Below are positions 3,848-57,533 of a stretch of DNA of 64,000 nucleotides, piece by piece. The stretch spans positions 23,159 to 87,158 of the forward strand of contig CASECZ010000004.1 of assembly GCA_949286725.1 (NCBI GenBank). Direction: 5' to 3'. The translations under genes and the position numbers were made by a program. How positions within the stretch are numbered: position 1 is the first letter of the stretch; the number at the start of each line of letters is the position of its first letter. The notes beneath the pieces were generated by a model, which made no database searches, had not been told where the DNA came from, and was given only the letters and a program-made list of their open reading frames with translations. The stretch comes from an uncultured Clostridia bacterium. GTDB lineage: Bacteria; Bacillota; Clostridia; Christensenellales; CAG-917.

Positions 3848-3858
3848 AGTTACCTCCG

Positions 3859-4065: not shown

Positions 4066-4073
4066 AATTCCTC

Positions 4074-4589: not shown

Positions 4590-4597
4590 AACTCCTC

Positions 4598-4966: not shown

Positions 4967-4977
4967 AGTCTCACCTC

Positions 4978-33480: not shown

Positions 33481-33505
33481 AAAAACGGAGGGCTTGTGCC
33501 CTCCG
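33481..33505 (-). terminator. rho-independent terminator of the giant gene
   Basis: 8-bp stem cggagggc/gccctccg (33486..33493 and 33498..33505) with a 4-nt loop. On the minus strand it is followed by TTTTT (33481..33485). It lies 31 nt after the stop codon. Confidence 0.8.
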
Positions 33506-33535
33506 CTTTCCGTTGTTGTAAAGCCCGTACAACCG

Positions 33536-36500
33536 TCAGACCGTAACCGTGGAAGCCGTACCTTTGATTTGCGCCTTGGGAACGGTGATATATCTCGGGC
33601 TTTCCGCAGTGCCTACGTTGACCGTCTCGGTGTCGAGAACTCTGCCTGCCGCGTCGATGACCGCACCCACGTAAGGAGTGAGGTTGTATTCAACCGACCT
33701 GTCCGCAATCTTCGGTATGGTGTAGGTTTCCTCGGTAGATGCAAACGTCACGTAATACTTTGCTTCGCTTGCGTCGCCGTTGTACTTGACCGTTGCGGTG
33801 CCGTGCCACACGACGTAGACGCTGTATCCGTTAACCGTGGTCTTGGTCGTAAGCGTCGTACCCGCCTTCAGGCTTGTCGTGGTATCGGTCAGTTTAACCG
33901 CAGGCACGCTGAGTTTGATGCTGAGACGCTGACCGTTGCCGATCTGCAACGCCGCACGTCCTTCGCCGCCGGTCTTGGCAAGGTCGACCGTCATATTGAG
34001 CGTGGTAGGCATCGCAACCGCGATGTAGCTGTAATCCGTCGTATAGTCGCCGCCGTCAACTTTGGCGAACGTTCCGTCGGCGTAGGTGTATTTGCTGAAA
34101 TACACTTTGTAACCCTTGGGCAGGCTCTGCGTCGCCGCGTCGTAAGGATTGATGGTGTGCGTTTCGTTGGATACACCGAACGTTGTGCTGCCGACTTCGG
34201 TGCCGAACGTGAACCCTTCGGTTCCGCCCTTGATGCCTTCAATCTTGGTGACGAGCACTCTGTAGACGTTGAATTCGATTGCGTATTCCTGCGTGCTGCC
34301 GTCGGGACCGGTGAGCAATGCGGTGAGTTCGGCTATACCGCCGAGATAGTTGACCTTCATCGTGCTGGTCTTCCATTCGAGCTTGTAAGACGCATCGGCT
34401 TCGCTGTAAGTCTGCAAGTTGCCGTTGTCATAGTTGACGGCGAGCGTGTCGGGCAACTTGTTCTTGAAGGAAACCATGCTGAAATCGTAAGGATTGATGA
34501 TTTCTTTCTGCAAATCGGTTATGACCGTGTTCATACCGTCGGCAAGTCCCGTTACGTTGTGCGAAACGACTTCCGCCATCGCCTTTCTGACGGTTTGCTT
34601 TTTGATGGTGAGTGTGGTTTCTTCCTTACCCGCCGCCGCGTCGTTTCTGCCGATTTCGAGAGCATTGACTTCGATGGCCAGCGTATAAGTGCCGCCCTGA
34701 TAATCCATACCGATGGTCGCGAAGTCGCATTTGACGCCGACACCCGCAATTTGTTTGCCATCGGCAGTAACCAGCGTTGCGGTCGTGGGGAAGAATTCCT
34801 CACTGAGTTTGATACCGCTGAACGGATCGAAGTGATAGGTCTGCGTGTCAATATCGAAGTAGTTGAGATAACCGTCTTCGGTACCGTTGGTTGCGAAGTT
34901 ACCGTCGGTTGCGAAAGCTATGCGCGTTACAACTGCGCTTTCGCCCTCGCCTTCCGTAACCTTCCTGACGTTCTTGCTCTCTTTGAAGTCGTCCGCACTG
35001 AACAGAATGTTCACCGCCGTTGCATCTTCGAAATTGAGCGGTACGCTTACGCTGACTTCTTTGGACGCCGCACCACTCTGCTTGATAATCGCAGAAGTGT
35101 TCCTGACGCCGCCCGCGTAGGTGTAGGTAAGACCCGCATGATCCCAACGGCTGACGGTAATCGTATCTGCCGCCGTGTAGACGAACACATACTCACCATC
35201 TTTTACGAGCGAATACGTTCTGGTCGACTCGTCGTAATCGTAGCGGTTGCCGCCCAACACTTTGTATGCGTACTGTTTGTACACGCTGTCCGCAGCTTCG
35301 TAATCCGCATATTTGACGAACTTGCCGTCGACGAAGTACACGAAGTCGTTTTTGTAACCGTCATTGTTGAACGGAGTGACGGACTCGTACGCGTTGAAGT
35401 TGTAACGAAGCGTTACGAGATCGTCCGCCGCGATGGTGGAGTTGTAACGCGTGATACGCACTGCCTTGAAGGTGATGCCGATGTTCAGAGTGCCCACAAC
35501 AAGGTCTGCGTTCTTGATTTCGAGTTGCACGTTGGTTTCCGACGTCGTATTGCTGGAGAAGTCCGCGGGCAGAGTCACTTTGTCCTCTTTCACGGAAACG
35601 TCATACTCCACGCTTGCGTTGGATCCCGCGAAGGTGAGCACTATGCTGTCAAACGGATTGCCTTTGCCGAACATGGCTCCCTCTTTGTATTCGAAGGAGT
35701 TGTAGAAGGTTATCGCGGTGGGCAGCCCGGTGTCTCTGTCGTAAGACACTTCGATGACCTGTCCGTTCTCGCCCTCGCCGAAGTTGGTGTAGGTGCGGAC
35801 GATCGTCGAGAATCTGCGCACTTCGCCGATGAACGTGTATCCGTCGGGGACGAACTCGGAGTCGGCTATCGTACGTGCTATGACGATCATGGGTACGGTG
35901 TAATTGTAGACCGTGCCGTTCTCGTCGGTGAACGTGATGGCGAAGTCGTCATTGCGGTACCCCTCGACGGGAAGTGCCGCATCGTTGCCCCACTCCACGG
36001 TGCCCCAGTTGACGTTGAGCGTCTTGGTCGTGCCGTCGGATACCGTCACTTCGAGGGTCTTGGGCAGCGTTGCGACGAATGCAGCGTAGCTCGCCCACTT
36101 GTAAGGATCGACGATTATCGTGCGATATGCGGGGTCGTTGATCTTGGAGGCGGACGACGTGCTGTTTTCGCCGAGCACGTTGTTGATCGCGTCGGAGACT
36201 TCGCCGTTTGCCGCAAGCGTGACCATGACGGGATATTCCGCATTGCCCGCGGCGGACTTCACGGTAAGCAGCGCCGTATCGACGTCCGCTTCCGCGTCGT
36301 ATTTGAATCCGTTCCAATCGAAGGTCGCGAACGTCTCCTCACCCGTCACGGCGTTGACGACGGTGCCCGTGGTGGGCAGCGCGCCGTACAACTGTGCCGA
36401 GCTTTCGATTGTGTATTCCAGATAGCCCTCGTTGCCCATATAGGCCTCGGAGCCGTCGTTGAAGTTCATTGCCACCGCCTTGGGTGCGTCGGTGACCGCA

Positions 36501-39500
36501 TCGGGCAGATCTGCGTTATCGGCCACGGGAGGATCGGTCGCCTCAATCAGTATGCGTACGTTGAGAGGCTGACGTACCGTCACCGCTCCTACCGTCTCGT
36601 CGGCATTGACGAAGCCGACAGCATCCATCATGCCGTAAACAACGTTGCCCGTCTTGCTGTCAAGCGAACGGTACACGTAGTACTCGCCCACGTACAGCGT
36701 CAGGGTCACGTCGAGACCACGCCAGTATTCGACATCACCGTCCGCATTGGTAATCGCCTTGATTGCCGCGTCGAGCGCAGTCCTGTCCACACTTTCCCAG
36801 TCGATGTACAGACCGTTGAAGGACTTGTTGCTGGTGTATCTGCCGCTTACCGTAGTGTAAGTGGTGCTCAGGTACTCGAACAGCGACTTGCCGCCAATCA
36901 ACGCATCTATCGTGTTGCCCTTGTAGCTCTCGAAGTTCTTGACGGTAACGGTGTTGTCGTTATTTGCGAATCTCGTCACGGAACTAATCGCGGCACGTTT
37001 GATGGTGACGGGATAAGTCGCGCTTGCGGTTGCCGCATAACCCCATTGATACGAGAAGCCGATGTTGAGCGTGGTCTGTCCCGCATTGCCCTCTTCGTCG
37101 AACGCACCGTCGAAGCCGTACTTATAAGTCGAGGTATCCCAGGTTATCACACCGACGGGGAAGTTCCTTCCCGTGGGCAATTTGTTGGGATCGATGACGA
37201 GATAGGTCAATCCGTTCGTTTCGTCTTTGATTGTCTCGCCTTCTATCACGGCTGCGGTAAACGCGGGATACAGTTTGTATTTGCCGCCGTCCGCATTGGG
37301 TATCAACGCTCCTTCCGCATCTTTTGCTGTAAGCTCTTCAATACTGCCGTCGGTCTTCTTCAACACCGCAACCAGTCCGTTGCCCTCTTCGTCGGTCAAC
37401 TGCGTCGCAAAGGTGCGCGTGCCGCCCGTCAGGAACTTGATTCTGACAATGTCGGGCAACGCCTGCATCTTGCCTGCAGTCGTCATATCGAGTTCGAGTT
37501 TGGACTGCGTATAGGTGCCGTCATCGTCGGGATCCGCATACGCATAGATGTTGCTGAACGCATAGTCATTCGTGATATACACGGGGATTGCCGCTACGAC
37601 ATTATTGAGTGCGTAACCGTAGACATAGCCCGCAAGTCTTCTGCCGTCAGTTGCGTCAACACCGGCAGCCGTCAGGTCGACAGATGCAGCATCCCATACA
37701 ACTGTGGTGCCGTTTGCACTGGTCTGACTGTTCGGGAAAGTCACGTTTGCGGTGAGAGGCAACACTTCGGCAAGGCTTGTACCGTTAAGCGTGATTTCCT
37801 GCGTGGAGCCGTTGTCGAAAGTGATCTGACCTTTGCGTGTTGCGGGATCGCTGATTACAATTTCTGTCTTATCACCAACTATTCCGTTGTTATTGACAAG
37901 CGTCGCGGTATCCGCTTCAACAAATCCCAACAGACCTTTATTATTGCCGTCGGTATTACCAAGCAATGACAGAGGATTGATAGTGAGAATCATACTATCG
38001 CGGAAGCTGTCAAGTCCGTTTTTGCTGCTTGTACCGTTCGTTACGTTCTTGCCGCCCGCCGCCGTCTTTGAAACGTTGACCATCAGTTCGAGCGCCTGAA
38101 TGCCGGGCGTCACCGTAGTGGACACTCCGTAATCGGAAGCATTGGGCGAGAGGTCGATATAAATGTTCAGCGAAGGATTAGGCACGCTCGGATCATACGA
38201 TGCAAATGCCAGAGGCAACAGAGAACCTATGATGATGCCGAGGTTGCCCACGCTGTCGCCTGCTGCGCCGGTTGCAGCGCCAACCAACGAGTCATCAACG
38301 CCGAGCAATCCGCCGTACAGTACGTATTGCAGGAGTGCGACGGGTATATCCGTTACATAAGGTTTGAGGAAGTTGACCTTCTCTTGTGTCGTAGAATATG
38401 ACGCAAGTCTTGTCATAAGGCTCTCGCCGTTGGCGTTCTTCTTGACAATATTATTACTAAATTCAAGCACGCCTCCGCTGACGTCGTGGATAGGAGTCCC
38501 CCAAATGGAGGCAGGCCACGGACCCGTGAAATAATAGTACGACGTTGCGTACGAACCCATTGAATCAGGATTGGGGAAGAAGAACGCACTCGAACTTCTG
38601 CTGTCCGTGAAGGAAGCAATCAGGTTCAGCACTATCGTGTACACCATTATCAGCAATTCGTTGAAAGCGTCTTTGCCGAATTCGATCTTTATGGAGATGA
38701 ACTTGCTGTCCTCATCCTTGTCAGAGAATTCGCTGACGGTCTTCATTCCGCTGAGATAAGGCTGATAGCCGTTGCTGTTGAAGAGGTTGAGCGTGATCTT
38801 CTGGATGAGTCCGTCGAGTTTAGGTTCATAACTCATATCCAGCGCGGAAGTCGCGTCCGTCGTCACATCATCACTTGCGGACACCGCACCGGGGAAGTCG
38901 GGCGTAGTGCTTGCGGAAGAATAATTCCATTCGGCACTATCGGCATCGCTGTAAGCGAAACTAAAGAGCTGACTTCCTCCACCTACCATACTTGCAAGGT
39001 TGATAGGATCACCGAGTATGGTGCCGACCAAACTATTGACCGTGCCGTTAGCAACGTCGAGATCCTGGATCAGGATGTTGTTGTTTCCAAAATGAACTTT
39101 TGCCGTAAACGCACCGCTGCCCGGTCCGCGATCGGGATGGGTTATCGAAAGGTCAAGTACAAGATGATAATCAGGCACACCGTTGCCTATCGAACTCGTC
39201 TTGCGTACACCGGTCAAAGTCACGGCACTTGCTCCGTTATTGCCGTATTTTGCAATTTGGTTGTACACATACGTGTTCTCTGCCGTCATCGACACAAAGT
39301 CGGTATTCTTTTCGAGCGTCAAAGCAAGCGCAGGACTGAGCCCGTCGAGAACGTTCTGGATGAGCGTCATAAGGCCCGCCGTCTTGGAGTATGTGAGACC
39401 GGCGTATCCGATGGACACTTCGCCAACTATGCCTTCGACGTCGATGCGTTTTTCAAGAGCAAGCCCGATGTCGCTTATGCTCAGTTGCAGACCCGTGGAC

Positions 39501-42500
39501 GCCTTATCCACAACAGCTTCGAGCGAAATCTGCGAAATGCCGTTGTCGTCGAGCGCGAGGTTGAGCGCGAGTTTCTGAATGGGAGGCAGATATCCTGCGA
39601 TATCGTCGCCGAGCATACCGAACACCACTCCGAGCAGATTGCTGTCGAGTTCGAGACCGATGGAGCCTTCCGCAATGTTTATCGCAAGCGATACGCCTTC
39701 GATGACGTCGCCCGTTTCGGCTTTGTCGCCGTCGGGAGTTTCGTCAGCGGAAGTTGCGGCGGAATCGTCGCTGTTGTCCGCTGCGGAATTGTCAAACGCG
39801 GAGCCGATGTTTGCACCGAGCAGACCGGTTATACCCTGGAACTTGATCTTGCCGAGGCCGAGACCGCTTGCGTCGATGTAGATCGCATCGGAGAATATGG
39901 TGCCGTTGGTGCCGAGCGTGTAGATGTTGCCCGTCTTGGTCAGTCTGGACGAACCGAGGTAGTACAGCGTCAGGAACTGGCTGTTGAAGGGCTCTCCGAG
40001 ACGGATATCGACTTTGAGGTCGCTGAACAGGATACCGCCGATACCGTAGTTGATGATTGCACCGAGGTCGATATCCGCGGTGATGTCGATAAGCAGGTTG
40101 ACGTCGTTTTCTGCAAACACGACGTCCACACCGGGCGTGAATTTGTAATACTGCACGCCGTCCGTGATCGACGCAGCGTCGGTAACCGCTTCGTAAGTTT
40201 CGGATCCGTCTGCCGCGGAAGTCTTGAAGTAAACCGTGCCGCCGCCGTTCACCCAGTTCAGAGCATCGTCCTTGGAGACGGGTGAATAGTAGCTCTGCAG
40301 GCTTTCGGAGAACAGGCTGACGTTTTCGCCGAGCACGCCGAGCAACAGATCGGTTATGAGCTTGATGCCCCAACCCGCAAGCGAATCGTCATACAGCACG
40401 TTGCCCGCTTCGAGGCCTTTTGACGTCATACTGAGTTGCAGGAATGCATCCGCGCTGATGTAGATGTCGTTTGCGATCTTGCCGGTAGTGATATTGTAGA
40501 ATTCCTTGTAATCCGCAAACGTATCGCTATCGTCGAATATGGGCTTGGTTCCGAGCACGATTTCGTTGATATCTATGGAACCCGTGAAGTCCTCCGCGAA
40601 TTTCGCGTTGAGGCTGAGACGCGCACCGTCGCGGCTGCTGCCGTATGCTGCGAGCATTATGTCGCCGAGGTCGGGCAGGACGACGTCCGTCGCCAGTTCG
40701 GGATCCGCTTCGCTGATCTTTGCGATGAGCGAGTTGATAACCATCGTGGTGAGCTGCATCGAGAAGTAACCGGGGTTGATGAGAACGCCGAGATACGCGA
40801 ACTCGTGCAGAGTCATGGCGATGGCATCGGTTATGGTAGCGGTGGAAGCGTCGTCGGAAGAGGTGCTGCCCGCGCCGATGACGTCATACACGCCGCTGAG
40901 TTTTTCTTCAAGCAATGCAACCAGTCCGAGGTCGGTTATGGCAACTTTGACGCCCTCGCCGAGCATACCGCTGAGGTCCACGTAAACGGAATCGTTCACA
41001 AGCGACACTTCGAGCATATTGGTATCGGACAGAACGCCTTTGGTCGAATAACGCTTGACGGACAGTTTTACCTGCATATTGCCGAGGTCCGCAACGTCGA
41101 TGAATGCGTCGATTGCCACGTTGCAGTACGGATACTTGCTGTTGCCGAGTTCGCCGATGATGTTGACGACCAGCTCGCTGCTTGCGATATCCGCGCCGGT
41201 CTCTTTCATGATGAGTCCGAGGATGATGTCAAGCAGTTCGCTGAGGTCGATTGCCTCACCGGGTTCGCCGTAGAAGGACACGTCGAGGTTGGTGCTGAGA
41301 CGCAGTTTTGCTTCCGCCACGTTGACGGCGGGTTTTTCTTCCGTCACGAATTCCTGGAAATCGGGAGCGGAGAACTCGTCGTTGATACGTATGCCGAGCT
41401 CGCCTATCGTCAGCGCCAGATTGACGTCGCCGAGGCAGAGATATTGTCCCTCGATCTTCGTGGGATCGAGGTCGTAACGCTTGCCGGAGTAAGTCCAATC
41501 CTTATCGGTTCTGTGCATCAGCAGTTCGATCTGCGACACAAGCATCTTGGTTCCCGTCGCATAAGTGACGGTATCGTTGTGGCCCTGATAATCCGTAAGT
41601 TCCTTGGGCACATCGCCGTACAAACCGGAAGTATTATTCTCCGTCCAGGCATTTGCATAAGGATTGGCAACGTCGTTGAAATCGAGATTGCCGTCCTGAT
41701 CTATAACGAGATCATAACGTTTGCCCAGCCAGATGACGTCGCTTGCCGCATAAGGAACGAGCGCATATTTGGAGGTAGACAACACGATATCGTTGCCGCC
41801 TGCGATATATTTGCCGTCCACGCCCTTGGTAACCGTGGGCAGCTCTGCAAGATATGCGTCAAGGTCGGTTATACCGTAAAGTTTCTCGGCTATGTATCTG
41901 TCGTTTTCGTTGTTGGCGGAAATCTCGTCTTTGGAGATTACGGTTTCCATACCGCTCATAAAGCCGACCTGAACCTGAATGGAAGGCGTGCCGCCGAACA
42001 GGATGTTGATACCGCTGGTATCCGAGCCGTCGGTGACTTTGATGAGAGGCAGATAGCCGTAACTCTCTTCGTTGAAATCGGGCACGAAATTCTTGATGAG
42101 ATTTTCGAGCAGATTTTGCGCGAGGCCGACACTCAACATATCGTTGGCGAACAGCACCTGACCGAGGATCATATCGAACACGCCCCAGACGTCTTCGGGC
42201 AACAAACCGGTGTTCGCATTGCCCACGTCGATTCCGAGATCGTTCTCGCCGAGAGACGGTGCACCGACAACCGGTTCATCTGCCGCCGCTGCGTCGGAAG
42301 CCTGTTCCTCAGTGGCACTTTCCTCTTTCGCCAAAGACTCGATGAGCGTCATAATGGGCAGACCTTCAAGGTAGATGTTCTGACCGAGGAAGTCTCCGAG
42401 CGTTGCGTTGCCCGTTTCGATAAGTTCGCCGAGTTTGTTACCGGAAATGTACACGTTGGCATTGAGTTCGGGGGTGATTTCCAGCCAGATGCGCAGAGGC

Positions 42501-45500
42501 TCTTCCGCAAGGTTCGGATCACCCTCTTCTATTCTGTCACCGTGATAGTTGGTGTCATAGTAGAATTCAATGTATGCCTTTGTTCCCGCAAGCAACGGAA
42601 GTATGGCGTCGACGGACAGTTCCGCACCGCTGGTGAGAGTGGGCAGCGCACCGATAAGTTCCTCCGCATTGAGCTGGAGATAAACCTTGAGAGTGCCGCC
42701 GATATAGCTCATGAATTCCGCCTGATTTCTCGCAAGCGAGGCAAGCAGGAACTTGAAGTAGTTGTTGGTCACGCCGTCTTTGAGCGTCATGAGTTTGCTC
42801 AGCTGTTCCGTCCAGTTGATTATATCGCTGAATTTGAGACTGATATCGAGGCTGAACGAGAGTTCCAGCGTGCGAATGTCGCCGAGCATCGAGAAGATAT
42901 CGAGGCTTCCGCCGCCGAGCAAATCACCGAGGTTGAGACTGAGCAGCTCGACGTAATCGCTGAACAGGGTGTAATCCATATACACGCCGTTGCCGTCCAA
43001 CACGTAACCGCCCTTTGCGGTGTCGTCTCTGACGTACAGTTTACCGTACTGACCGTCGATTGCCGTAACGACGGTGCCTTCGCCTCTGGTGTACGCAAGA
43101 GGCACACCGTTATAGGAAGCGGCATCGAAGACCGCCATTTCGGTCCTTTCCGTCGTGTAATAGTAGCGGTAGTAGTAGACGGTGGTGCCGTCGGTCACCG
43201 TATCGCCGACCTGAATCTGTCTGTAACCGTCGGGTATGAGTGCGTAACGCTCGGAGAGCGCATAATCGCTGGTCTGATTGATGAGTTTCTTGCCCACTTC
43301 GGTATTCTTGACGTAAGAGCCTTTGCCTTCGCCGACGTTGACGTAACCCTTCTCGGTGCCGTCCTTGGCGTATGAGCCGTTGCCCTCGCCGACATAGGTG
43401 TACATACCGTAGTAGTAAATGTAATCCTTGGACTCGGATTTGATTCTGTCTTCGTTGAGAGCCGCGAAGTCTTCTTCGCTGCCGAAGTCGATCTGCATAC
43501 CCTGAGACGGATTCTCGTTGTTGAAGAGATTGAGCGTAAGAGCGATGTCGAGCAGACCTTTTTCGCCCGTCTCGTCGAAGAGCGTCGCACCTATCGTGAT
43601 ATCATACGGATCGAGGTCGATCTGCGCATTGATGACGATGTTGGGCAGATATTCCTCGAACGCCGCGCCCGTGTTGGGAGCGACCATATTGACGATGAGT
43701 TTGATGAAGCCCGCGCTGGCTTTGAGCGCAAGCGAACGGGTGTAGAAGTTGAGCAGACCGTACGCACCGCTGGGATCGCCGACGTTGACGCCGCCGCTGC
43801 GCGCGTCGGACGCAGTCGTCGCTTCGTCGGATTCGGAGGACGTGAGCCCGCCGAGGATTTCACCCAGATCGAGTTTGTCTGCAAGCAGATCTTCAATGCT
43901 GTATGCGGACAGGTCGATCTTGAACTTGGCACCGCTGCCAAGCAGCCAGGTGAGATCGGCGTAAAGCGCCGCGCCGGAATCGGGATCGTTCTCGTAATAC
44001 AGACCGATGATATGAGTAAGCGTACCGTCCGTCTGTTCTCTGCGCCACGCGTCGATTGCAAGACCCACGTTCTTGAAATACAAGGACTTGATGGTATCGT
44101 CGCTGGAATAATCGAGCGTTGCGTTGAGCCTGATTTCGAACAGTATTTCCGCCGAGTAGTTGTTGGCGACGTTGAAGTTTGCGTTGAGTTCGCCAAGAAT
44201 ACCGCCGAGAACCTGATCCATTTCGGCAGACGACGCGGTGTAACGGTAGTACGTGCCGTTTGCGTCGAGCACGTAATGACCGTCGACGAACGCATACTTA
44301 TCGGCGGGAAGCGTAGAGGAACCCGTCTTTTCCATCCATTCGTCCGCAGTGAGATACAGCGCGTACTGACCGAGTTTGAGGCTGCCGCGGAGCGTCAGGC
44401 TGATGCTGTACAGTTCCTCGGTGTCGACGTACTTGATCTTGTTGCTGGGATATACTTTTTCGTCGGTAAGTTCGCCGTATTCTTTGACGCTGACGAAGTT
44501 GTTGCCGACACGCACGAAGTACACTTCGGCTTTGTCGAACGCCTCTGCGGACACCGCGGTGTTGGCACCGTAACGGTCTTCGTAGACGGCTTTCGTCACG
44601 ATTTCGAGCGTCGCGGGATCGAGATACAGGGTGCTGTCGACCGCGTTGTAAGCTTCCGCGTCGATTGCGCCTTTGTAGTTGACGAAATAGTCGGGTTTGG
44701 AGATGAGGCTTTCGGCTTCCTTCACGTCATAGTTGCCATTGCCCTCGCCGACGTTGATGTAACTTTCGTGAGAAAGTTTGTCGCCACGGTACACACGGTC
44801 CTCGGTGATGGGCACGTACACCGTGTAGTTCTTGTCGACGACGTTGACGAGCAGATAGTAAGTTCCATCGTACGCCCCGACGGCATCCACTTTGTTGTAG
44901 GTACCGTTGTAAGTGTACGCATTACTGTTGACGATGGGATAGAACTCCCCTCTGTAATAGAGGTACGCGTTATCATTCGCATCCGCCGTTGCGTCGGGCG
45001 TGAACTGATACATCGGATTCGCGACGTAACTGCCTTCGCCGTCGGCGACGGAGATGTATTCGTAATGTGTCGCATCGGTGGTGGGAAGCTGAATTGCAAG
45101 ACCGATCTTGTATTCCCACAGATACAGACCAATTTCGATGACGGGTTTTCTGGTATCGGTGGCGTAAATGACGTATACGTCGGTGCCGAGTTCGCTGTAA
45201 GTGTCACCCTCCGCGTCTTTGACGTAGAAGACGTAAGTGTCGTTCAGTGCCGCGATAGCGTTGCCGGAGTGTCTTTCCGCTCTGATCCAATCCGTTCTGT
45301 TGGCGTCTGCGGACGAAACGTATGCGTCGTCAACCTTAATATAAGTGTCCAAAGTAACTATGTTGTAGCGCGTAACGTCGCCCGCGTCCTCCGTCCACAG
45401 CGTAAACTCGCCGGCGCTGGGCTGATAATACAGACCGTCCGCCGCTTCCTCGATGGTAAATCTGGTGTTCGCGTAATCAATCTGATTGTGCTCCGCATTC

Positions 45501-48500
45501 GCCACCGTGACGAAACGGTAGTTGTTGAAGTCGGTGTTGATCGTGACGTAAGACTGGTTGTTCTGTTCACCGAGGTCGATTTGCGCACCGGTGAGCAGGA
45601 AAAGCAGGTTGTTTATGATGTCCGCCTGGGTCAGCAAACGGATATAGCTGGACGTTATCTGAATGCCGTACAAGAACGCACCGATATACGCCGCGATTTC
45701 GGAGCTGATGAGAGGCAGGTCGAGGTCGACGTCCACCTGGATGGGCAGGGACAGACCGCCGTCATCTTCGTCGGCTGCCACGGCTTCGCTCACCGCGCCT
45801 TCCGCCGAGGAATCGCCCATGAGGTCGTCGATGAAGGTCTTCAATTCGTCGATCTTGATCTGGATGCCGGGCTGACCGAAGTAGCTCAGGTCGATGAACA
45901 GACCGTTGTTGGAGCCCTTGATGCCGTTCTCGTTGGGCAGGAACTCGCTGTCGTCCTCGCCGCTTATGAGATACACGCCGAGTATCTTGTGTGCTCCGCC
46001 GCCTTCGAAGTCGGGATCGTAAGTGATGATTTCGATGGATGCGTTGATGTAGTCGAGCAACATTTCGAGACCGAGGTCGGCTGCGACGTTCTCGTTGTCG
46101 ATGATTGCGCTGAGCAATTGAATGAAGCCGATGAGGTCGAGGTCGCCTTCGGGAATTTCGAAGTCGGGTATGTTGCTGCCGAGCTGACGCATCAACTGGA
46201 TGAATCCGCCCAGTCTGAATTCAATCGAAACGGAAAGGTCGATCTTGCGTTCGACGTCGCCGTCGTTGTTGGACATGGAGTTGATTGCCGCCTTGATCTC
46301 CTGGGTCGCATCGGGGAACAGATAGTTGAGCAAAGGAGTGAGGTCGACTTCCGCGTCATGGTCGAACAACAGGTCGAGCGAAATGGTTTCGTTGAGTTTG
46401 ATGTTGTCGATATCGTTGAAGTACTTGTATTCGTTGAGTTCTTCGACGGTCAGCGTGTATTCGCGCTGAGAGGTGAAGTACACGTCGAGGTTGTTGACCG
46501 CAAGCATGAGGTCGAGTTTCATGTCGTGAGCCTGCGGGTTGGCTTGCGTGCCGGCCTGCCACGCGTAGATGACCTCGTCGGTAATCGAAACGGTATTATC
46601 GTCTTTGGTATAAACGTAACTGTTGTCTTCCGAGTTCTTGGTCACTTCGTATCTTGCATATCTGGCAAGATTTTCCGCAATGTCGGAAGTGCCCATTGCA
46701 CGGTAACCGTCATCCGTGGGAGTGTACATACCCGCGGCATCCGCGAAGAACACGTAATACTTGCCGCCCTCGACGATCTGGTCGGAAGTGACGGGCAGGT
46801 AACGCTCGCCTTCGAGTTCGAGGTGTGCGCCGATTTCCACGCTCACGCCGTCGTTGAGGTCGATTGCGACGTCGAGACTGCCGAGCAGGTCGTCGTAAAT
46901 GAAGTCACCGAGTTCGTAATCGCCGAGTTTGACGAGCGAGAGCGCGTAACGCAACACTGCATTGCCGATGGAAATGGCAAGTCTTCTGTTGCTGATAAGC
47001 AACTGCGCGACTTTTTCTTCCGTGGTCAGGTTGTCCGCCGTACTCACGGTTTCGTCCGCAGACACCGCTTCGCTTGCGGAAGCGGAAGGAATTTCGACGT
47101 CGTCGTAGATGGAACCGTCGAGCAGGTCGCCGAGGAGGTCGTCGAGATATTCGGATATCATCGTGAGTTTGACCGCAAGCTTGGGCAGACCGAAGAAGGA
47201 CAGGTCGAGGTAGAGCATGTCACGCATATAGTACGCGGCAAGCCACTGCACTTCCGCCCCGACTTCGGAGGACAGGTTGAACACTCTCAACACGATTTCC
47301 GAATTGGTGATTTCGTTCATGTCGAGCATTACGGAAGCGTCGATACGGAAATGCGCCGAAGAACTGCCCTTCGCGGTAGCGGGCATTTCAACGACGATGT
47401 CGCCGATGTCGCCGAGCAGGAAGGATAGCATTTCGCCGAAGTTGATCTTGCCTTCCGTGATGCCGAGATTGAATTCGACGGACGCGCCGACCGTCACGAC
47501 GGAGTCGTAGAACGGCAACAGAGGCACTTTCACGTCGGGATCGTGTTTGTCAACGCCTTTCAGGATATATTCAGGCAGCAACTGGTTGTTGCCGAACGCG
47601 AGGTCGAGACCGCCGAGTTTGAGCCCGATGTCGATTGCGTCGATGTTGATGTTTACGCCGAGATAGTATTCTCTAAGTCTGGTATAAGGATCGAATTCAC
47701 GGAACAACGTACCGTTGTCGTCCTGAACATAGCCGTACAGTCTGACGTACCTGTCGTTTTCGATCTCATAATATCTGTCGTTATATCTAATGTAATAAGT
47801 TTTACCTTCTTCAATGGAAGTGGCGATGTTGTAGGACTGACCGTCCTTGACATAGAACAGATAATCGTCCGCGGTCAGATACAGATCGCTTCCGTCCACT
47901 TTTTCGACGAGTTTGATGTAGTCGCCCTGCACACCGTACTTGGAGGCAAGAGCAAACTCCTCGTTTTCGTAGGAGGTGTAACGGTGTCCTTTCGGATAGG
48001 TCGTTTCATCGCCGAGTGAATCGGATATGTCTTTGTAGTTGTACTTGCCGAGGTCGACGTCGAGGCTGAGCTGCAATGTGTCGAAAATATCCGAAATGCC
48101 GCCGAGATCTGGCACCAGCGTCGCAAGCACGAGGCTGACAATCGCTTTGGTGATGACGATTTGGAACGTCGTGCTGGAATACACCAGCGAGATCATGGCA
48201 TTTCTTGCGGCATCCGCGTCGCCGTCGGCAACGGACACTGCGGAATCGGACGCCGACGCGGCTCCGCCGGTCGCATCCTGACCGAGTTGCGCCGCTTCGA
48301 GCACGAATTGCAGGAAGTTGGGCACGTAAGAATAGTTGCCGACTATATCAAAGATATCGGTGCCGTCGAGATACAGGTCGCCGCGATACAGATAGATACC
48401 GCCGAGGATCTTTTCTTCGCCGTTTTCGTCATACACCACGTTACCCTGTGCGTCGAGTTCCATGAGTTCGAGCGCGAGTTCGATTGCCATAAGGTCGCTG

Positions 48501-51500
48501 CCGCTCAGGAACTTGACGAAGTCGGGAGTGTCGCCGAGCAAAGCGTCGATTGCAAGTTTGGTCGGATCCGCCGCGAGGGACACGCGGAAGCCGACGCCGT
48601 CGTAGAACGCGCTCTGCGTCTTGAGTTCGAGCACGAGGTCTTCGATCCAGGAGCTGACGAGAGATCCGAGGTTATAACTGTCGGATGCGGTGGATTCGAA
48701 GTACAGGATACCGCCGAGTCCCACGGTTATTCTCTGACCCTGCAACAAGTCGGTGTCGTAATCGACAAAGTCTTCGTTGCCCGTGAGTTTGAGTATGCCG
48801 TAAATGTACTGTGTGAGGTCCACGTAGCCGTTCTTTTCCTGTTCGCCGACCACAGAAGCGTTCTCGGTTGCGAAATCGAGTTCTATGCCCGATTTGGCTT
48901 CGACGTTGACGGTAAAGCCCGTCGCGGCGATGACTTCCACGCCGAGAGACAGTCCGCCGTTGCTGAGGTCGATGTAGAGCCTGCTTGCTTCGTCGAGGTC
49001 GTAGCTGTCGAAGTCAACGCTTTCGTTGCCCGTGATGAGCGCGGCAACAGCGGCGATGAGGTTGGTGTTGAAGTATGCCGAGAGAGCCAGACCGCCCGTC
49101 AGTATGTTCTGCGCGTCGTCGGGGGTGCCCGTCATTATCGAAGAACTGAGAGCGAGTTTTCTCACCAGCGCGGTCACTATGTCGAGAAGGCTCTGAGCGT
49201 CGATGCCCTCTTCACCGGCTTCGCCGGACTGCTCTTCCGCGGAAACGGCTTCCGTGCTTGCGGGGGTTTCGGGATCGGGATCGAACACGCCCAGTTTGTC
49301 GAGCATTTCGATGAGGTTGAGTTTGATCTTGGGTCCGCCGAGGCTCGCCGCGCCGCCGTCACCTTGCAGGTCGGCGTAGAGTATGCCATCGCTGAGATAC
49401 AGCGCAAGCATTGCCTCTCTGGCGCTGTCGGGGTTGAATACGAACTGTATTCCGAGTTGCAGTGCGTCTCGGAGAATTGTGATTATGTCGAGATTGTCGA
49501 ACACGCCGTCGGAGAAGTTGCCCGCCAGCAGCTGATCGAAGTTGATCGCGGTAAGGTCGAGCGCGCCCGTCAGTATGATATCGAAATTGTCGTCAATCGG
49601 GTCGTTCAAAGCAAGGTCGAGACCGAGCGCGTTGAGCAACGTGGTCACGAGCACGTTGAGGTCGCCCAGTTCGAGACCGCCGATTGCGTCCTTGATGGAC
49701 TGCATATTGAGAATTTCGCCGACGAGCTGCGAGAGGTTGAGAGGCTGACGCACCCACGTGCCGGTGGGATTCTGAACGTACGTACCGTCGGAAAGTCTGA
49801 TATAACGCTCGCTTGCGGGATACTTATTTGCCTCCTTGTCGGAGAGCTCCTGATAAGTTGCGCTTGCGGAGTACGACACGTTGAGGGTGATGTCGAAACG
49901 CACGACGCTGCTCTGCTTGTAGCTGTTGAAGTCTTTGAGAGTGCCGTCCGCTTCTTCGGTCGCGTTCTTGATTACGTTGCTGATGTCCTCGTTCTTGGAC
50001 ATACCGACGCTGGGCTTGACAATGGACAAGCCGAGACCCACGAAGCCCGCGTCGACGTCGAGGTTGAGCGAAGGCGCCGAGAAGTCGATGTCGAGTTCCG
50101 CATTGGGATTGAGGGTTTCGATGATGTTCGAAATCTCTTCCGCCTGATCGCCCGCGAGCGCGGAAATGAGCGTCGTGAGCAATTCCTTGGTAATAATGAG
50201 GCTGAGGTGATTTTCGCTGATATTGAACAGCACTTCCAACGGGTCGGAAGCTTGCTCGCCTTCTGCCGCGGCAACTGCGGAGGACGCGCCGTTCGCACTG
50301 CTGTTGTCACCCGTGTTTCCGGACATGAATTCGGCAATCTTCTGCGAAATCAGAGCGGCAAACGCGGTGTTTTCGATGGTGAAGGGGTTGGAGAACAACA
50401 CGCCGGTCACCCAGATCTGAGAACCGCGCAGATAAATGCCGAGTATGTCTTTGTCGTTGTCGAGACGGTCGGTCAGTTGCAACACGATTTCCGTCTCGGT
50501 GGGATTGATAAGATTGATGTTCGCACCCACGTACACGTTGGCGTCGAGTCTGAGGTCGTTGGAGATTTCCAGACCGAGGGCGAATTCCAGCTCCGAAACG
50601 AGCGCGGAGATGAGATCGCCGATGGGCAGTTCGTTGTTCTCGAAGTTGTCGGTATTGCCGAGTCTGACGTCAAGTTCGACGTTCGTGCTGACGGACAGCC
50701 ATTCGAGGCCGTCGTAGATGCTCTTGTATTCCTGCTCCGCAAAGTTGTCGGGCAGGACGGAATATTCGTCGCCGAAACCTACCTGGAGGTCGGACAACTC
50801 AATCCCGACGATGAAGGGATTGACGCCCAGCGAAAGCTGAATCTTGAACGGTCCGTCGCCGTACCACAGGGACACGAAGCTGTTTTCGGGAACGAGTTCG
50901 ACGAAGTTGTCGGGCAAGGTGATTGCGGGAGAACCGTCCTCGTTGGTGACGAAGGTGTTGAGGATGAACGTCACGAATTGCGCACCGAGATTGATCTTCG
51001 CGGTGCTGTTATCCATATAAATTCCGTTAATGACGTTACCTATAATATTCTGAATTATATCCAAAACATTGCTGTCTGTGCCTTCTTCGACAACGACTTC
51101 GTCCGCGGTCGTTGCAGCGGGAGTATCTTCACTATCCGAAGACGCAAGCAGAGTCGCCAGGTCGAGGTTGGGTATTTTGAGTTTGAAGTTGTTGAGCAGT
51201 CCGTCTTCCGCAGAGGAGATATAAACGTTGCTGCCGTTTTCGCCGCCGACGAGATAGACCGCGAGCAAGGGCGTCGAACCGTCGGTTATGGCACCGTCGT
51301 AGATTTCCAGAGCGATGTCGGAGTGCGAAAGGATATAATTGATGTCGGCGATGTTCGCGGCGTTGAATCTGATGTTCGCCGCAATACGGAAGCTTATCGA
51401 GGTCGATACGTTTCTGTCAATGCCGAATTTCAAGACTATCTGCGCAATCAAGGACTTAATCTGCGCGTTGACTGCGGGGTCTTGCGAAATCTGCGTATCT

Positions 51501-54500
51501 TCGAGGAAGGCGGAAATCCACTCGCCCACCGTCATCTCGTTTTCGGCGTCTGCAAGCGCGGAGAGGTTGATGGCGCCCTGAATGCTGAGATACACGCTCT
51601 CTTGCAGGACAAACGCGATGTTGCCTTTTTCGTCTTCGGAAACCGCACCGATCGTCGCATAGCCGCCGAACTGCGCCGCAGTCTCTTCGGAGATGACGAC
51701 CTGCTGTGCCGCTTTTTGAGCAAGGGCAACGCCGATTGCGTCGATGTAGATATTCAGGTTCGCGTCTTCGCCGATGCCCACGTTGACGTCAAGCAGCTTG
51801 CCGTCGGTGTCGGTGACGCCGATCTGCGTCCAGTCGACGGCGATCATCGCGCTGATTTCGGGCAGCGAGATGCCGACGAGATTGACCAGCAGTTCGGTGA
51901 GACCCTGCACCAGTTCGATGGTCATACCCTTGGAGGTAATCTGCAATGCGAAGAGCAACGCGTTTTTGTCGGTTGCTTTGCCCGCATCGGAATCGGGGCT
52001 TACCGCCTCCGCAGTCGTGACGCCTGCGCCTTCGTTGCCGCTGCCGCTGTCTGCGAGCAGGGACATGATGAGCGAAACTATGTCGACGTCGAGTGCGACG
52101 GGCGCGATGCCGAGCGCGTTTGCGTCAACGTAAAGTTTGCCGTCCTTGTAATAGATGGCGATACGGGGGGACGTGCCGTCGTCGAGCACGAGCGAAAGTT
52201 CCGTGCCGTTGACGTAGTCCGCGGGCAGCGTCTGACCGAGGAAGTCCGCGAGAATGGGAGCAAGGTCGACCTTCGCTTTGAGCGAGAGACCGTAGTCCAG
52301 AGTTATGTTTTCGCCGACTTCGATGGAGCCGAAGTCTTCGGGCAGTTTGATTTCGCCCGCGTTGATCTGACCGCCGATGCCCGCGCCGAGAGAGAGGTAG
52401 ACATAGGGATTGGCGAAGAAATCGGAGAACTGCTCCTCGTCGGGAGCGGTTATGTAATTGATGTCGTTGACGGCGCAGTTGATGCCGCCGATGCTGACGC
52501 CCATGTCGAACACGTCGCCCACGCCGAGCGCGACTTCGAGTTCGAGTTCGGTGAGGTTGAGACCGTCTTTCAACGTGATGCTGATGCCGCTGCCGTCGTC
52601 GATCGTAAGATCGCCGCCGTCCGCGCCTTCGATGGTGAGACCTTTGACGTCAAGCAATGCAAACAGCTGAGAAATCAATCCCGTTGCAAGATATACGTCG
52701 ATGTAGGTGTCGCCGATGCGAACTCCCGCAAGAGCCGCTATCAACAGACCCATGACGTCGATGGAAGAATTTTCTTCCGCCGCGGAAACCGCCTGAGAAC
52801 CCGCAGGCTGTTCCGGGAACAGACCGGCAAGCATGGGACCGATGTCCATCTTGACCGCCATGCCGCCGAGCAGAGCTTCGTCCGTCTTGATGTAAAGCAC
52901 ACCCTGCATCAGCCACAGTTCGAGAGGTGCCGAACCGTCGGAAACTTCGAGTGCGATGTGGAAGTTGGAAGAGGTGATGAGCGAAGCAACGGAGCCGGAA
53001 CCCGCGATGAGGTCGCCGAGTCCGCCGAGTTCCGCCTGAATGACGAGCGTCGCGTCTGCGCCGAAAGCCTCGGTGAACGCCGCCATAACGGTGAGAATGA
53101 GGTCGGTGCCGTTGTCGTATTTGATGTCCGCGAGTTTGCTTGCGTCGGCAGAAATGTTGACGCCGATTTCGAGACCGAAGCCTATTGTGTCGACGTTCTT
53201 GAATAGCGTGGAAATATCCGCATTGTCGAGGTCGGCAAGCACGGCACGCAACTCGTCAAAGCTCACGAGAGGTATGTATTTGCCCGCTTCGTTGGCGGCT
53301 CTGCAATCGGCAATGGTCTGATCGAACAATTCGGAATCGCGCACGGAGCCGAACTGCGCAGCGATGTTGACGCCGAGACCCGCAACAGTGGTGTTGTCCA
53401 CGCCGAGGTTGACGCCGAGGTCGAAGTTCTTGAGTGCGCCAAAGCCGTCGTTGGTGTATTCGAGTTTCACGTCGCCTACGATCGGGATCTTCGCGCCCGC
53501 GTTATCGCCCGTGAACACGAGACCGAAGATGTAGTCGAGAATGGACTGCGTCAGCGTAACGGTAACGCCCTGAATATTGAAGATGTTACCGTCCATATTG
53601 ACGTCGATGTTGTTGATGATCGCGACGATGAGTCCGATGGTGTCCTGAATGGCGGCACCGTTGTCGTCGGCGGTCACGCCGCGAACGATGTCACCTTCGG
53701 CAATCGCCTGCTCGGCACGCGCCACGTAGTCGGCAACGGCTTCCTGCTCGGATGCGGAAAGACCGGAAATGCCGTCCTTTATAGTTGTGATGAGCTGATC
53801 GATGAGGTCGCCGAGAACGGCGTTGAGGTTGAGCCCCGTGACCTTGAACATACCCGTGCCGAGTATGCCGCTGAGGTCGACGTAGAGAGCCTGATCCGCA
53901 CCGACGTAAGCGATGCGTGCGCGCACCTGACCCTGTTGCCCCGTCAGTTCGACGACGAGGTTGGTCTGTGCGGAATCGCGCATATTGAGTCCGCCCTTGA
54001 CGGTTATGTTGAGCCCCTGATTGAGGTCGTCAAAGACGATTTCCTTGGTTTTGAGCGCTTCGGGAAGTTCGGAATAACCGGGAATGAGACCGGAAATGAG
54101 CGTACCGAACGCGCCGACGATGCTGTCGACGGTGTGGGTGCCCTGTTTGAGAAGTACGTCGAGTCCGATCGTCAGATCGAAGGTGAGGAGGGAATATTCA
54201 CCGAGCGAAGTGATGTCGAGGCCTCTGCCGCCCGCACTCTCGGGTTCCCCTTCGGGAGCCTTGGCGTCGGTGAGATACAACGCGTTGTTGATGACGGGAG
54301 TGCCGTAATTGATGGTACGTGCGCCGAGACTGAGGTCGAGCTGGCTCTGAATGATGCCGTAGGAACCTTCCAGCGCCGTGCCGGTGGTATCGAACGCCAT
54401 ACCCACGTCAAAGGACGAGGAAAGCAACCTGTCGTTTTTGATTTCGGAAACGAGGTAGAGAGAAACGGATTCGGGAACGAGCGCCGCAAGCATGTTGAGG

Positions 54501-55542: not shown

Positions 55543-56340
55543 TTATTTGTGCCAGATGTCGCGACACAGCGACGAAACGAAATCCGCCACCATTCTTTCG
55601 GCAAAATCGTCCAGGGTTTCGCCGTGTGCGAGCGACGTCATGTCGACGGCGTAAATCACGGACTCGGACACGTCGTTCTCGTGACTGTGTCCGAAGGTGG
55701 CGTTAGCGTTGCGCCGCGCTTGCGCGGCGATATCGTATCTTTTGGCGGCGTTCTGCGTCTCGAATTCGTCCATCAAAGCGGCGGCGAGCGCGTCGTAACC
55801 GCTGACGTCCAGCGCGACCTTGTCGCGGTCGGCAAGCCAATCCAGCCCTCGCCACACCTCGCAACCGTAAATTTTGCGCGGTTTTTCGTCCTCGTTCAGC
55901 AAATTCACCGCCTTTATCGCGGCGACGCAGGCTGCGACGTGGGTGGGATGCGCGTCGAAAGGATTGTGAAGATAAAGCGTTTCGACGCTCGGATATTGTC
56001 GGAGAATTTCCGCCAGTTCCCCGACGAGCGAATCCGAACACTCCTTGACCTCCGCCGAACTTTTCTCCAACAACCAAAGGGCGGTATAACCGCCCTTTGC
56101 GGCTACTCTCTTCTGTTCCGCCGTGCGCAGTTCCGCCATATCCTCGTCACTCACTCCCGCATACTGCGGCGCACGGGGACAGCCTCCGCCGTCGGTGAGC
56201 ACCACGGCGACGAATCCCCCTTTGCCGTAACAGTCGGCAATTCCTTTCAATGCGAACATCTCCGTGTCGTCCTTGTGGGCGGACACCGCAATGCATTTCA
56301 CGGGAGCATTGCCGAACCCGTCGGGTACGTATTTTTCCAT
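55543..56340 (-). CDS. PIG-L/LmbE-family N-acetylglucosaminyl deacetylase
   Basis: 265 aa with the AHxDD motif (VSAHKDDTE) and later HPTH and Asp/His ligands. RBS GGAGG. No signal peptide. Confidence 0.75.
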   Translation of the reverse strand: MEKYVPDGFGNAPVKCIAVSAHKDDTEMFALKGIADCYGKGGFVAVVLTDGGGCPRAPQYAGVSDEDMAELRTAEQKRVAAKGGYTALWLLEKSSAEVKECSDSLVGELAEILRQYPSVETLYLHNPFDAHPTHVAACVAAIKAVNLLNEDEKPRKIYGCEVWRGLDWLADRDKVALDVSGYDALAAALMDEFETQNAAKRYDIAAQARRNANATFGHSHENDVSESVIYAVDMTSLAHGETLDDFAERMVADFVSSLCRDIWHK

Positions 56341-56582: not shown

Positions 56583-57467
56583 TTATTCGAATATTTTGCC
56601 TAGAGACTCGTCGTCGAGGGCGAAGTTTTCGGGCACGGCGATTATGCTCCATTTCTCCGTCATCGTCGCGCTTTCGCCCGTTGCGAGCTTATGCAGGGGC
56701 GAGAGCCACTCCACTTCGAGAATGTGTTCGTTGGTGTAACTTTCGAAATTACACCAGAAATCGCCGTATATGCCTGCGGCGGGGAGACACTCCCATTTGA
56801 CCGCCTTGTCGCCCACCGCGTAGTAAGCGCGACCTTTGCGGGTGAACGCGCCTATCTTGATGGCTTCGGGTCTGTCGGTCTGTCGCAGCGTGAGAAATTT
56901 TTTGCCGACGCGCAGTCTTTCGTCCTCGGGATCGTTGTAAGGCCAGCTCACGACGTTCTGCACGGGGTTGAGGTCGTCCGTCGGCTCGTTGAGCGGAAGC
57001 ACCATCGTGCCGCCCTTTGCCGATACCGTGAGCCCCCACACGGCAAGTTCGCGCGCGGCGCCTTTGTTCGTCACCGTGTTGCGCACCGTGAGCGTGCCGT
57101 CCTCCGCGAGGTCCAGCGCGAGTTCGTAGTCCAGGTTTTTGGCGACACGACAGGCAAAGCGTCCTCCGTACTGCGTCGTTTCGTATTCGACGGGGACGTT
57201 GTCGGGCGTGTACGTTTCGAGGTCCTCGGGCGACTTCCACACGCGGTGACCGCCGTAGAGATACCACAGCGTGCCTTTGCCGAAATTCTCGTCGAAGTAT
57301 TCGCCGCCTTTGTTGACGTTGCGCGCGATATCCTCGTTCATGAAGTTGAAGTTCTCCGTGCCGAAGTAGATGATGCGGGGACCCACGTCCACCGTGACAA
57401 GAACTTTTACGCCTCCGCGATAAAACTCGACGCATTTGCCGTAATTTGCGTACGATACGATATTCAT
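56583..57467 (-). CDS. hypothetical beta-sandwich protein (possibly DUF4380 / aldose-epimerase-like), co-located with GH20
   Basis: Track ORF 56583..57482 trimmed to MNIVSYANYGKCVEF (ATG 57467 after AAGGAGG). The family assignment is from weak recollection only. Confidence 0.6.
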   Translation of the reverse strand: MNIVSYANYGKCVEFYRGGVKVLVTVDVGPRIIYFGTENFNFMNEDIARNVNKGGEYFDENFGKGTLWYLYGGHRVWKSPEDLETYTPDNVPVEYETTQYGGRFACRVAKNLDYELALDLAEDGTLTVRNTVTNKGAARELAVWGLTVSAKGGTMVLPLNEPTDDLNPVQNVVSWPYNDPEDERLRVGKKFLTLRQTDRPEAIKIGAFTRKGRAYYAVGDKAVKWECLPAAGIYGDFWCNFESYTNEHILEVEWLSPLHKLATGESATMTEKWSIIAVPENFALDDESLGKIFE

Positions 57468-57533
57468 TGTGCCTCCTTGCAATACGCCCGCTCGAAAGCG
57501 GGCGAAAAATGAAAAATTCCGTTTTTTCGGAAA

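Follow-up and report, generated by a model that had tools for sequence, protein, structure and literature searches.

The CW_binding_1 family (PF01473), whose members include LytA, CbpA, the CROPs of TcdA and TcdB, and the streptococcal glucan-binding proteins, is built from extracellular aromatic-rich beta-hairpins with Gly/Asp/Asn turns. Aromatic-rich beta-hairpins with turns of this kind also make up the Tyr-rich outgrowths of a giant protein encoded in the DNA analyzed here, a window of 64,000 nucleotides (nt) (the whole stretch that was analyzed) on contig CASECZ010000004.1 of an uncultured Clostridia bacterium. In this protein, however, the hairpins are predicted to be irregular meanders within the loop of another module rather than a solenoid array, and no hidden Markov model (HMM), period of ~20 amino acids (aa), or structural match ties them to CW_binding_1. 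We consider it fairly probable that the outgrowths are family-specific beta-hairpin sub-domains that grew from one permissive mid-module loop of a giant lipid-anchored surface protein. In the following, W denotes the protein of the window, L followed by three digits a lineage, and P followed by four digits a database protein.

With respect to overall architecture, W resembles Staphylococcus aureus Ebh and SasG/Aap: an exported protein of several thousand residues, composed of many repeated modules, presumed to be a stalk-like adhesin, and carrying beta-rich domains at the end distal to the anchor. In contrast to these proteins, the modules of W match no described repeat in Pfam, NCBIfam, or the PDB, and their paralogy is invisible to BLAST; the anchor of W is an N-terminal lipobox, not an LPXTG motif. 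The reading frame was taken from the list of open reading frames (ORFs) and its translation:

33536..55306, minus strand: giant ORF of 7,256 aa, containing the whole interval 43304-45900

Residue i of W begins at nt 55306-3(i-1), and the guanine-plus-cytosine content is ~54%. The N-terminus, MRRLKVALLFVLMLCLVTGALVAC, was judged by eye to be a lipoprotein-type signal; it has a positive n-region, a hydrophobic h-region, and, at aa 21-24, the lipobox L-V-A-C, which fits the pattern [LVI][ASTVI][GAS]C. The lipobox motif is retained wherever the N-terminus of an orthologue is intact. The region from aa ~30 to 5480 consists of about 14 modules rich in Leu, Ile, Gly, and Asp, with acidic linkers between them; the module ends share the motif LY.DLS..G..K.K. 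The composition of this scaffold is 4.9% Tyr, 15.9% Leu, and 8.8% Ile, and W contains 8 Cys in total. A beta-rich region of ~1,450 aa with much Thr and Tyr forms the C-terminus. A marginal match to Big_4 (PF07532) lies in this C-terminal region (aa ~6412-6437, score 23.4 bits with the Pfam gathering cut-off at 22.1, covering profile positions 14-39 of 59), outside the Tyr-rich outgrowths, which themselves give no Big_x match. There was no Pfam or NCBIfam match on aa 1-5800, and PDB sequence searches with the whole chain returned no match. A BLAST search of W against itself detected no internal repeats, whereas an HMM built on the C-terminus of module 8 matches the ends of other modules; divergence among the paralogous modules is so great that BLAST misses the repeats and profile methods are needed.

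Tyr residues are unevenly distributed along W. Their density is 10-16 per 100 aa at aa 2401-2600, 2801-2900, 3201-3700, and 3901-4100, compared with 1-6 across the N-terminal modules (aa 1-2400). The inserts that cause this enrichment are composed of 12.8% Tyr, 9.1% Thr, 8.9% Val, and 5.7% Leu. With module limits placed by end motif and linker positions, the Tyr-rich segments and the modules that carry most of them are as follows:

43808..45790, minus strand: module 10 (aa ~3173-3833), the longest module, with scaffold halves and three Tyr-rich segments
45152..45508, minus strand: Tyr-rich segment 10a (beta-rich sub-domain, aa 3267-3385)
45077..45151, minus strand: scaffold segment of invariant length in module 10 (aa 3386-3410, containing IEIGLYLWEYKIGLAIQLP)
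44417..45076, minus strand: Tyr-rich segment 10b (aa 3411-3630), holding the YLYYRG hairpin, which is invariant, as well as signature hairpins 1 and 2
44231..44362, minus strand: Tyr-rich segment 10c (aa 3649-3692), including KYAFVDGHYVLDANGTYYRYT
42293..43807, minus strand: module 11 (aa ~3834-4338)
42962..43444, minus strand: Tyr-rich segment of module 11 (aa 3955-4115), with signature copies 3 and 4, including TTVYYYRYYYTTE and GGYVLDGNGVYMDY
47627..48034, minus strand: Tyr-rich segment of module 8 (aa ~2425-2560), with 11-13 Tyr per 100 aa, rich in insertions and deletions (indels) among orthologues
46532..46795, minus strand: Tyr-rich segment of module 9 (aa ~2838-2925), likewise indel-rich among orthologues
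49709..49813, minus strand: rudimentary hairpin of module 6 (aa ~1832-1866, beginning ERYIRLSDGTYVQNPTGTWVRQP), at the position that corresponds to the large outgrowths

A second scaffold segment of invariant length in module 10 (aa 3631-3648) separates 10b from 10c.

We used hhalign to compare the modules with one another. Module 10 (positions 523-658) aligned to module 8 (270-396) through the C-terminal scaffold with a probability of 92% (E 5e-7), and module 11 (271-458) aligned to the scaffold of module 2 (152-290) with a probability of 93% (E 4.6e-7); in both cases the Tyr-rich parts remained unaligned. The Tyr-rich stretches thus behave as insertions relative to the paralogous modules, as the sequence-only reading of this DNA had proposed. 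That reading placed them in the longest modules, where they are indeed found, and regarded them as wholly absent from the short modules, which does not hold, since module 6 contains a homologous hairpin of ~35 aa. The smaller insertions that it had positioned at aa 2400-2480 and 2800-2880 also exist; their actual positions are aa ~2425-2560 in module 8 and aa ~2838-2925 in module 9. In the comparison of modules 10 and 6, the 10c hairpin KYAFVDGHYVLDANGTYYRY aligned to the module 6 hairpin ERYIRLSDGTYVQNPTGTWVRQ with a probability of 59% (E 9e-5), and modules 8 and 11 have similar [Y/F]V.D.NG.Y hairpins ahead of their C-terminal scaffold halves. Judged from these alignments, the outgrowths of modules 8-11 occupy one common mid-module loop site, and they probably descend from one ancestral hairpin.

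A homologue search with the single sequence returned 10 truncated relatives, and a search with an alignment returned 240. Among the matches listed (120 of 240), the orthologues are mostly full length (7,256-7,991 aa) and have neither a Pfam domain nor a name. The sequences available at strain level include more than 100 that are nearly identical. A scan of one genome per species located the giant gene in 47 species; one of these 47 genomes is a closed chromosome of 1.65 Mb. The species labels are mostly those of metagenome-assembled genomes of uncultured Clostridia, Clostridiales, and Christensenella(les), while several are labelled otherwise, e.g., Bacteroides and Bacteroidaceae. The named sources are chicken, rabbit, roe deer, and water-buffalo rumen; isolate names suggest that other genomes are of human origin. 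We found no description of the giant-protein family in the literature. A protein of ~7-8 thousand residues that takes up ~1% of a 1.65-Mb genome is conserved in 47 species-level genomes of common uncultured gut Clostridia and lacks an annotation, a Pfam domain, and a structural relative. Unrelated sequence at the C-terminus of P0005 and at both the N- and C-termini of P0007 points to assembly chimeras or frameshifts; these ends are no basis for inferring domain fusions.

The Tyr-rich segments are present in all 42-45 species examined. To describe their conservation in module 10 we used an alignment of 42 species with W as the reference. The coefficient of variation (CV) of segment length is 0-0.08 for the scaffold and 0.21-0.44 for the Tyr-rich segments, and the identity to W is 42-48% and 13-25%, respectively. 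The scaffold segment at aa 3386-3410 is 25 aa long in 42/42 species and is 42% identical to W. By this comparison with orthologues, the Tyr-rich segments behave as inserts of variable length. W carries a small version of them: of the four variable segments in module 10, three are shortest in W. At 119 aa (median 166, maximum 431), segment 10a of W is at the minimum; the first half of 10b has 105 aa in W, again the minimum, and up to 283 elsewhere. The exception is the 10b second half, where W has 115 aa and the median is 72. The insert span of module 10 totals 426 aa in W and 453-1,010 aa (median 505) elsewhere, and the module 11 insert has 161 aa in W compared to 184-302 aa in other lineages.

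Within these variable segments an ancient core is retained. The insert positions of W are occupied in 95-97% of the species in three of the four segments, and in 57% in the second half of 10b. An aromatic residue occurs in at least 80% of the 42 species at 22 of the 46 insert Tyr of W, and 72 of 426 W positions, including YLYYRG, are invariant across 8 lineages. In P0012 (and also in P0004), module 10 contains an extra 258 aa that amount to 1.5 copies of the protein's own module 9 insert; aa 3676-3933 of P0012 match aa 3109-3228 with 52% and 49% identity (E 2e-24 and 2e-8). This duplication implies that whole Tyr-rich cassettes can be copied between modules. Tandem duplication was also considered as the origin of the expanded tips of L027; BLAST and Tandem Repeats Finder revealed no internal repetition in them.

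The structure of the inserts was predicted with AF2 (AlphaFold2). The prediction for modules 10 and 11 together (1,200 aa) was poor, with a predicted local distance difference test (pLDDT) score of 47.5, and was not used for fold searches. For module 10 alone (aa 3176-3840), model 2 has a mean pLDDT of 61.5 and a predicted template modelling (pTM) score of 0.35. The pLDDT of this model is mostly 70-90 in the insert block, <50 in the N-terminal scaffold (aa 3176-3261), and 56-68 in the C-terminal scaffold, which is modelled as long strands; in this model the inserts are better predicted than the Leu-rich scaffold. Segment 10a (model residues ~92-210) contains ~9 short strands with block pLDDT values of 55-79. 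In 10b the block values are mostly 70-90 with dips to 39-50 near aa 3526-3545, and YLYYRGEFYPI is predicted as a hairpin (YLYYR-G-EFYP) with a pLDDT of 82-88. Segment 10c is predicted to form a three-strand meander, KYAFV / HYVL / YYRYT (E496-499, E502-505, and E511-515; pLDDT 77-80), of which DGHYVLDANGTYYRY is a part. The claim that the Tyr-rich stretches are rich in beta-hairpins is therefore borne out by the prediction, which gives hairpins and meanders.

The sequence-only reading had reported a 14-aa signature, Y-x-x-V-[GA]-[ED]-G-x-G-x-Y, in four copies, and had quoted five hairpin-like strings; we found all of these sequences, and the signature copies lie exactly where they had been reported:

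45017..45058, minus strand: signature copy 1, YISVADGEGSYVAN (aa 3417-3430)
44720..44761, minus strand: signature copy 2, YINVGEGNGNYDVK (aa 3516-3529)
43361..43402, minus strand: signature copy 3, YTYVGEGNGSYAKD (starting at aa 3969)
43304..43345, minus strand: signature copy 4, YVNVGEGKGSYVKN (starting at aa 3988)

The regular expression Y..V[GA][ED]G.G.Y has four matches in W, all at these sites, while composition predicts 0.0003 matches over all of W and 0.00015 within the inserts. When the insert residues were shuffled 20,000 times, a single match turned up in 0.005% of the shuffles and two matches never did. Both signature copies of module 10 are predicted by AF2 to be hairpins with a (V/A)-G/D-E-G-x-G turn. 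In model 2, copy 1 consists of the strand YEYISV (E239-244), the turn ADGEGS (245-251), and the strand YVANPMYQFTP (E252-262) with a pLDDT of ~75; copy 2 consists of a strand ending in SHESYIN (E330-343), the turn VGEGNGN (344-350), and the strand YDVKEAE (E351-357), over which the pLDDT drops from ~70 to ~50.

Among W and the closer clade L003-L011, whose members are at least 33% identical to W, most of the module 10 hairpins 1 and 2 have a short turn with Gly (GEGNG type). At the site of copy 1, the tight turn is restricted to W and L003-L011, while at the site of copy 2, Y.YVGEG.G.Y is kept at the same position in most of the closer lineages. In distant species the flanking strands are retained and the tip has 10-25 aa (e.g., YVTGADAANHDIFNIAAGARYV); the longest tips have ~150 aa (L043, copy 1 site) and ~90 aa (L027, copy 2 site). 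For copies 3 and 4, the strict motif is confined to the W lineage (W, P0055, and P0056), and the orthologues have longer and different tips, so that the four strict copies occur together only in the W lineage. The signature is the shortest form of a hairpin tip, a Gly-rich tight turn joining two Tyr-bearing strands, and it recurs four times in W because the W lineage carries the most trimmed segments. Its replacement by unrelated loops in other species argues against an indispensable binding motif, and the signature is not one through which a known repeat family binds its ligand. Conversion between the four copies at the DNA level was considered as well; copies 2 and 3 share 25/33 nt (counted by hand), which is explained by common preferred codons and gives no evidence of gene conversion.

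The proposed kinship with CW_binding_1/2, glucan-binding, Flg_new, or YD repeats found no support in the searches: Pfam, PDB sequences, and Foldseek yielded no match, and the spacing of the units is not regular. A Pfam hmmscan of W (aa 1-7256, E<=1) returned no CW_binding_1, CW_binding_2 (PF04122), Flg_new (PF09479), or YD/RHS (PF05593) match. CW_binding_1/2, Flg_new, YD, and MORN were also absent from scans of the Tyr-rich region of 8 lineages (E<=10) and of the whole module 10 of 42 species (E<=1), the latter with no family in more than 2/42. PDB profile searches either had a best E of 0.93 or returned nothing; the match at E 0.93, to a GH43-like arabinofuranosidase, and a weak match to CBM74 (E~1) were dismissed as noise. 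A Foldseek search of the PDB with the module 10 model returned nothing at E<=0.001; the top matches, pore-forming toxins with template modelling (TM) scores <=0.15, are noise. Foldseek against BFVD also gave nothing at E<=0.001. The autocorrelation of aromatic positions in module 10 of W has a single, mild signal, at lag 18 (z 4.1), whereas the mean autocorrelation over the 42 species is <=0.03 at every lag, so that a conserved ~20-aa periodicity is absent. The two halves of the insert aligned to each other in hhalign over 17 columns only.

When a profile of the insert was searched exhaustively with HMMER against 1.84 billion representative proteins, 15 sequences matched at E<=0.001. As 14 of these are members or fragments of the giant-protein family, the Tyr-rich element is private to it. 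The sole match outside the family, the RTX-like protein P0135 (605 aa, E 1.6e-5), was set aside as a short-motif coincidence that involves YYVD..G..V rather than the signature. P0135 contains a repeated YYVDSLGDVVTEQ.GEG.DRVY unit that resembles the YYVD..GNLV stretch of 10b; the likeness is probably a convergent hairpin motif. The Gly-rich turn of W (G-E-G-x-G) is similar to the calcium-binding GGxGxD turns of the RTX beta-roll in that it joins short beta-strands, and the RTX-like P0135 is a weak match to the insert profile; however, that match does not lie on the signature, W has no nonapeptide periodicity, and the turn of W is dispensable, as long loops stand in its place in most species.

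We compared W with two close relatives to determine the ratio of nonsynonymous to synonymous substitution rates (dN/dS). Against P0056 (90% identity), dN/dS is 0.21 for the Tyr-rich segments, 0.125 for the neighbouring scaffold, and 0.26 for the C-terminal region. Against P0055 (98% identity), the values are 0.38, 0.076, and 0.36, respectively. The Tyr-rich segments are under purifying selection that is moderately relaxed, and not under diversifying selection. Values of 0.08-0.38 in all segment classes tested, along with the loci in 47 species and the orthologues of 7.2-8.0 thousand aa, mark the giant ORF as a genuine and conserved coding region. Variation in dS is very strong (e.g., 0.52 in the module 9 insert and 0.03 in the scaffold beside it, in the comparison with P0055), a sign of recombination mosaics. 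W and P0055 differ by 13 divergent tracts, which are spread along the gene and of which only 3 overlap Tyr-rich segments; several Tyr-rich windows rank with the most conserved ones in close relatives. In a comparison with L051, a 98%-identical strain, there are short tracts of 11-32% nucleotide divergence over a background of 0.7%, which indicates a recombination mosaic along the whole gene that is not confined to the Tyr-rich parts; the tracts (minus strand) are:

aa 1551-1751 (nt ~50054-50656)
aa 2851-2951
aa 6651-6851

Several explanations of the Tyr-rich outgrowths can be weighed against these results. The sequence-only reading had taken them for aromatic repeats of the clostridial CW_binding or glucan-binding type, grafted onto the modules as ligand-binding loops that bind glycans or the cell wall. 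Their aromatic, Gly/Asp/Asn-rich composition and predicted hairpins agree with this, as do the probably extracellular location of the protein and its conserved neighbours related to amino sugars (a GH20 hexosaminidase, a PIG-L deacetylase, and an HGSNAT-like acetyltransferase). We nevertheless regard this explanation as quite improbable, because neither W nor the 8 lineages nor the 42 species yielded one of these repeat families in Pfam, PDB sequence and profile searches gave no match, and Foldseek against the PDB returned no choline-binding or glucan-binding protein at the threshold used; furthermore, the units are irregular meanders without conserved periodicity, not tandem arrays, and unrelated long loops replace the signature turn in most species. 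The outgrowths might instead be purely structural filler that provides bulk or rigidity without a ligand, its length drifting neutrally through slippage and duplication. The freely varying length, the minimal version tolerated by W, a constraint that is moderately relaxed compared to the scaffold (dN/dS 0.21-0.38 versus 0.08-0.13), and the fact that no conserved surface motif was identified would fit this explanation. If the segments were neutral filler, some lineages should have lost them, whereas they are kept in all 42-45 species; invariant motifs such as YLYYRG, the 72/426 invariant positions, and dN/dS values well below 1 also speak against it, and we consider it unlikely. The earlier expectation that the insertions vary as host-adaptive regions fared differently in its two parts: their length does vary (CV 0.21-0.44), while the adaptive interpretation is weakened by the dN/dS values, by the conservation of Tyr, and by recombination that is not concentrated in them. 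An explanation in which hypervariable tips evade phages or host immunity through positive selection or frequent recombination is supported by the strong differences in length and sequence between species and by the heterogeneous dS of imported tracts, such as the module 9 insert. With dN/dS not above 1, an overlap with Tyr-rich segments in only 3 of the 13 tracts that diverge from the 98%-identical P0055, and several Tyr-rich windows among the best conserved in close relatives, it is very improbable.

For the explanation that we favor, growth of family-specific sub-domains from a single loop, the outgrowth site would lie just ahead of the C-terminal scaffold half of the module, and the modules would represent a size series at this one site, from ~35 aa in module 6 through ~90-160 aa in modules 8, 9, and 11 to ~430 aa in module 10. 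Conserved aromatics, presumably the folding core, would keep the sub-domains folded while the tips are free to lengthen or shorten, with growth occurring through indels in the tips and through the copying of whole cassettes between modules that was seen in one lineage. The sub-domains would extend laterally from the middle third of a long modular stalk, where they may serve as aromatic-rich interaction surfaces (adhesion to glycans or proteins) or make the stalk thicker and stiffer; as to function, surfaces displayed for interaction or a structural thickening are most likely. Some points weigh against this explanation. The confidence of the module 10 model is moderate (mean pLDDT 61.5, pTM 0.35), and module 11 with its two signature copies was modelled only at low confidence (AF2 model 1). 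In addition, homology does not link the sub-domains to any ligand. A bolder proposal, that the outgrowths represent an undescribed ligand-binding fold on an undescribed giant surface fibre of at least 47 gut Clostridia/Christensenellales species, which would attach to host or dietary glycans or to microbes with a specificity tuned by tip length, is one to which we assign a low probability. As the best-folding part of the protein and the part that changes size among species, the Tyr-rich outgrowths offer a natural first handle on binding. They also provide a clean example of sub-domains arising in a repeat module: growth occurs at a single loop, the aromatic core is conserved, and the tips are free.

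Upstream of the giant gene, the window contains:

55543-56340, minus strand: PIG-L family deacetylase
56583-57482, minus strand: 299-aa protein without assigned identity
57534-59207, minus strand: GH20 hexosaminidase
59710-60612, plus strand: HGSNAT-like acetyltransferase
61408-63432, minus strand: GH127-like protein

The locus is chromosomal, and W and a 40%-identical orthologue share the gene order GH20, the gene without assigned identity, PIG-L, giant gene, Mem_trans, and Band_7/Zn-ribbon, with MetRS further on.

Long ORFs run antisense to the giant gene:

33494-37969, plus strand
40436-43375, plus strand
44012-47428, plus strand
48161-53206, plus strand

The in-register antisense frame contains 11 stops in 21.8 kb. 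We rejected these ORFs as genes: all species examined have almost no stops in this frame, the ends are not conserved, and the product would be 18.8% Val. The antisense ORFs are a by-product of codon usage.

An additional Tyr-rich stretch, FVYFVDGKFVKYADYEAADSVYKQYAYKVLGGNRYDYDESTRTYSLVKDGEYVFVYT, occurs at aa 6601-6700 (nt ~35207-35506) in the C-terminal Ig-like region, with 13 Tyr per 100 aa; it has the same hairpin style and lies outside the modules.

Each of the linkers between modules contains a short acidic motif, (S)-E-A-[VI]-[ST]-A-x-[DE], where x is A or D (orthologue consensus GASEAITAAD). Its positions include:

45767-45787, minus strand: linker motif at aa 3174
43805-43825, minus strand: linker motif at aa 3828
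47051-47071, minus strand: linker motif at aa 2746
49232-49252, minus strand: linker motif at aa 2019
51989-52009, minus strand: linker motif at aa 1100
42275-42295, minus strand: linker motif at aa 4338

Because it is conserved within an otherwise variable linker, the sequence of the motif suggests a site of processing, modification, or docking. In or beside the linkers of some lineages there are Cys-rich mini-inserts of the form D-x-[DN]-x-[DN]-G-x-C-[DE]-x-C (e.g., HEHADLDGDGICDGCNE), of which W has none. They are located at aa 1129 and 2438 in P0003; at aa 1145, 1495, and 2462 in P0004, where several occur in tandem; at aa 1145, 1495, 2462, and 6493 in P0011; and at aa 5913 and 6345 in P0123. 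From their sequence, these mini-inserts look like small metal-binding knuckles.

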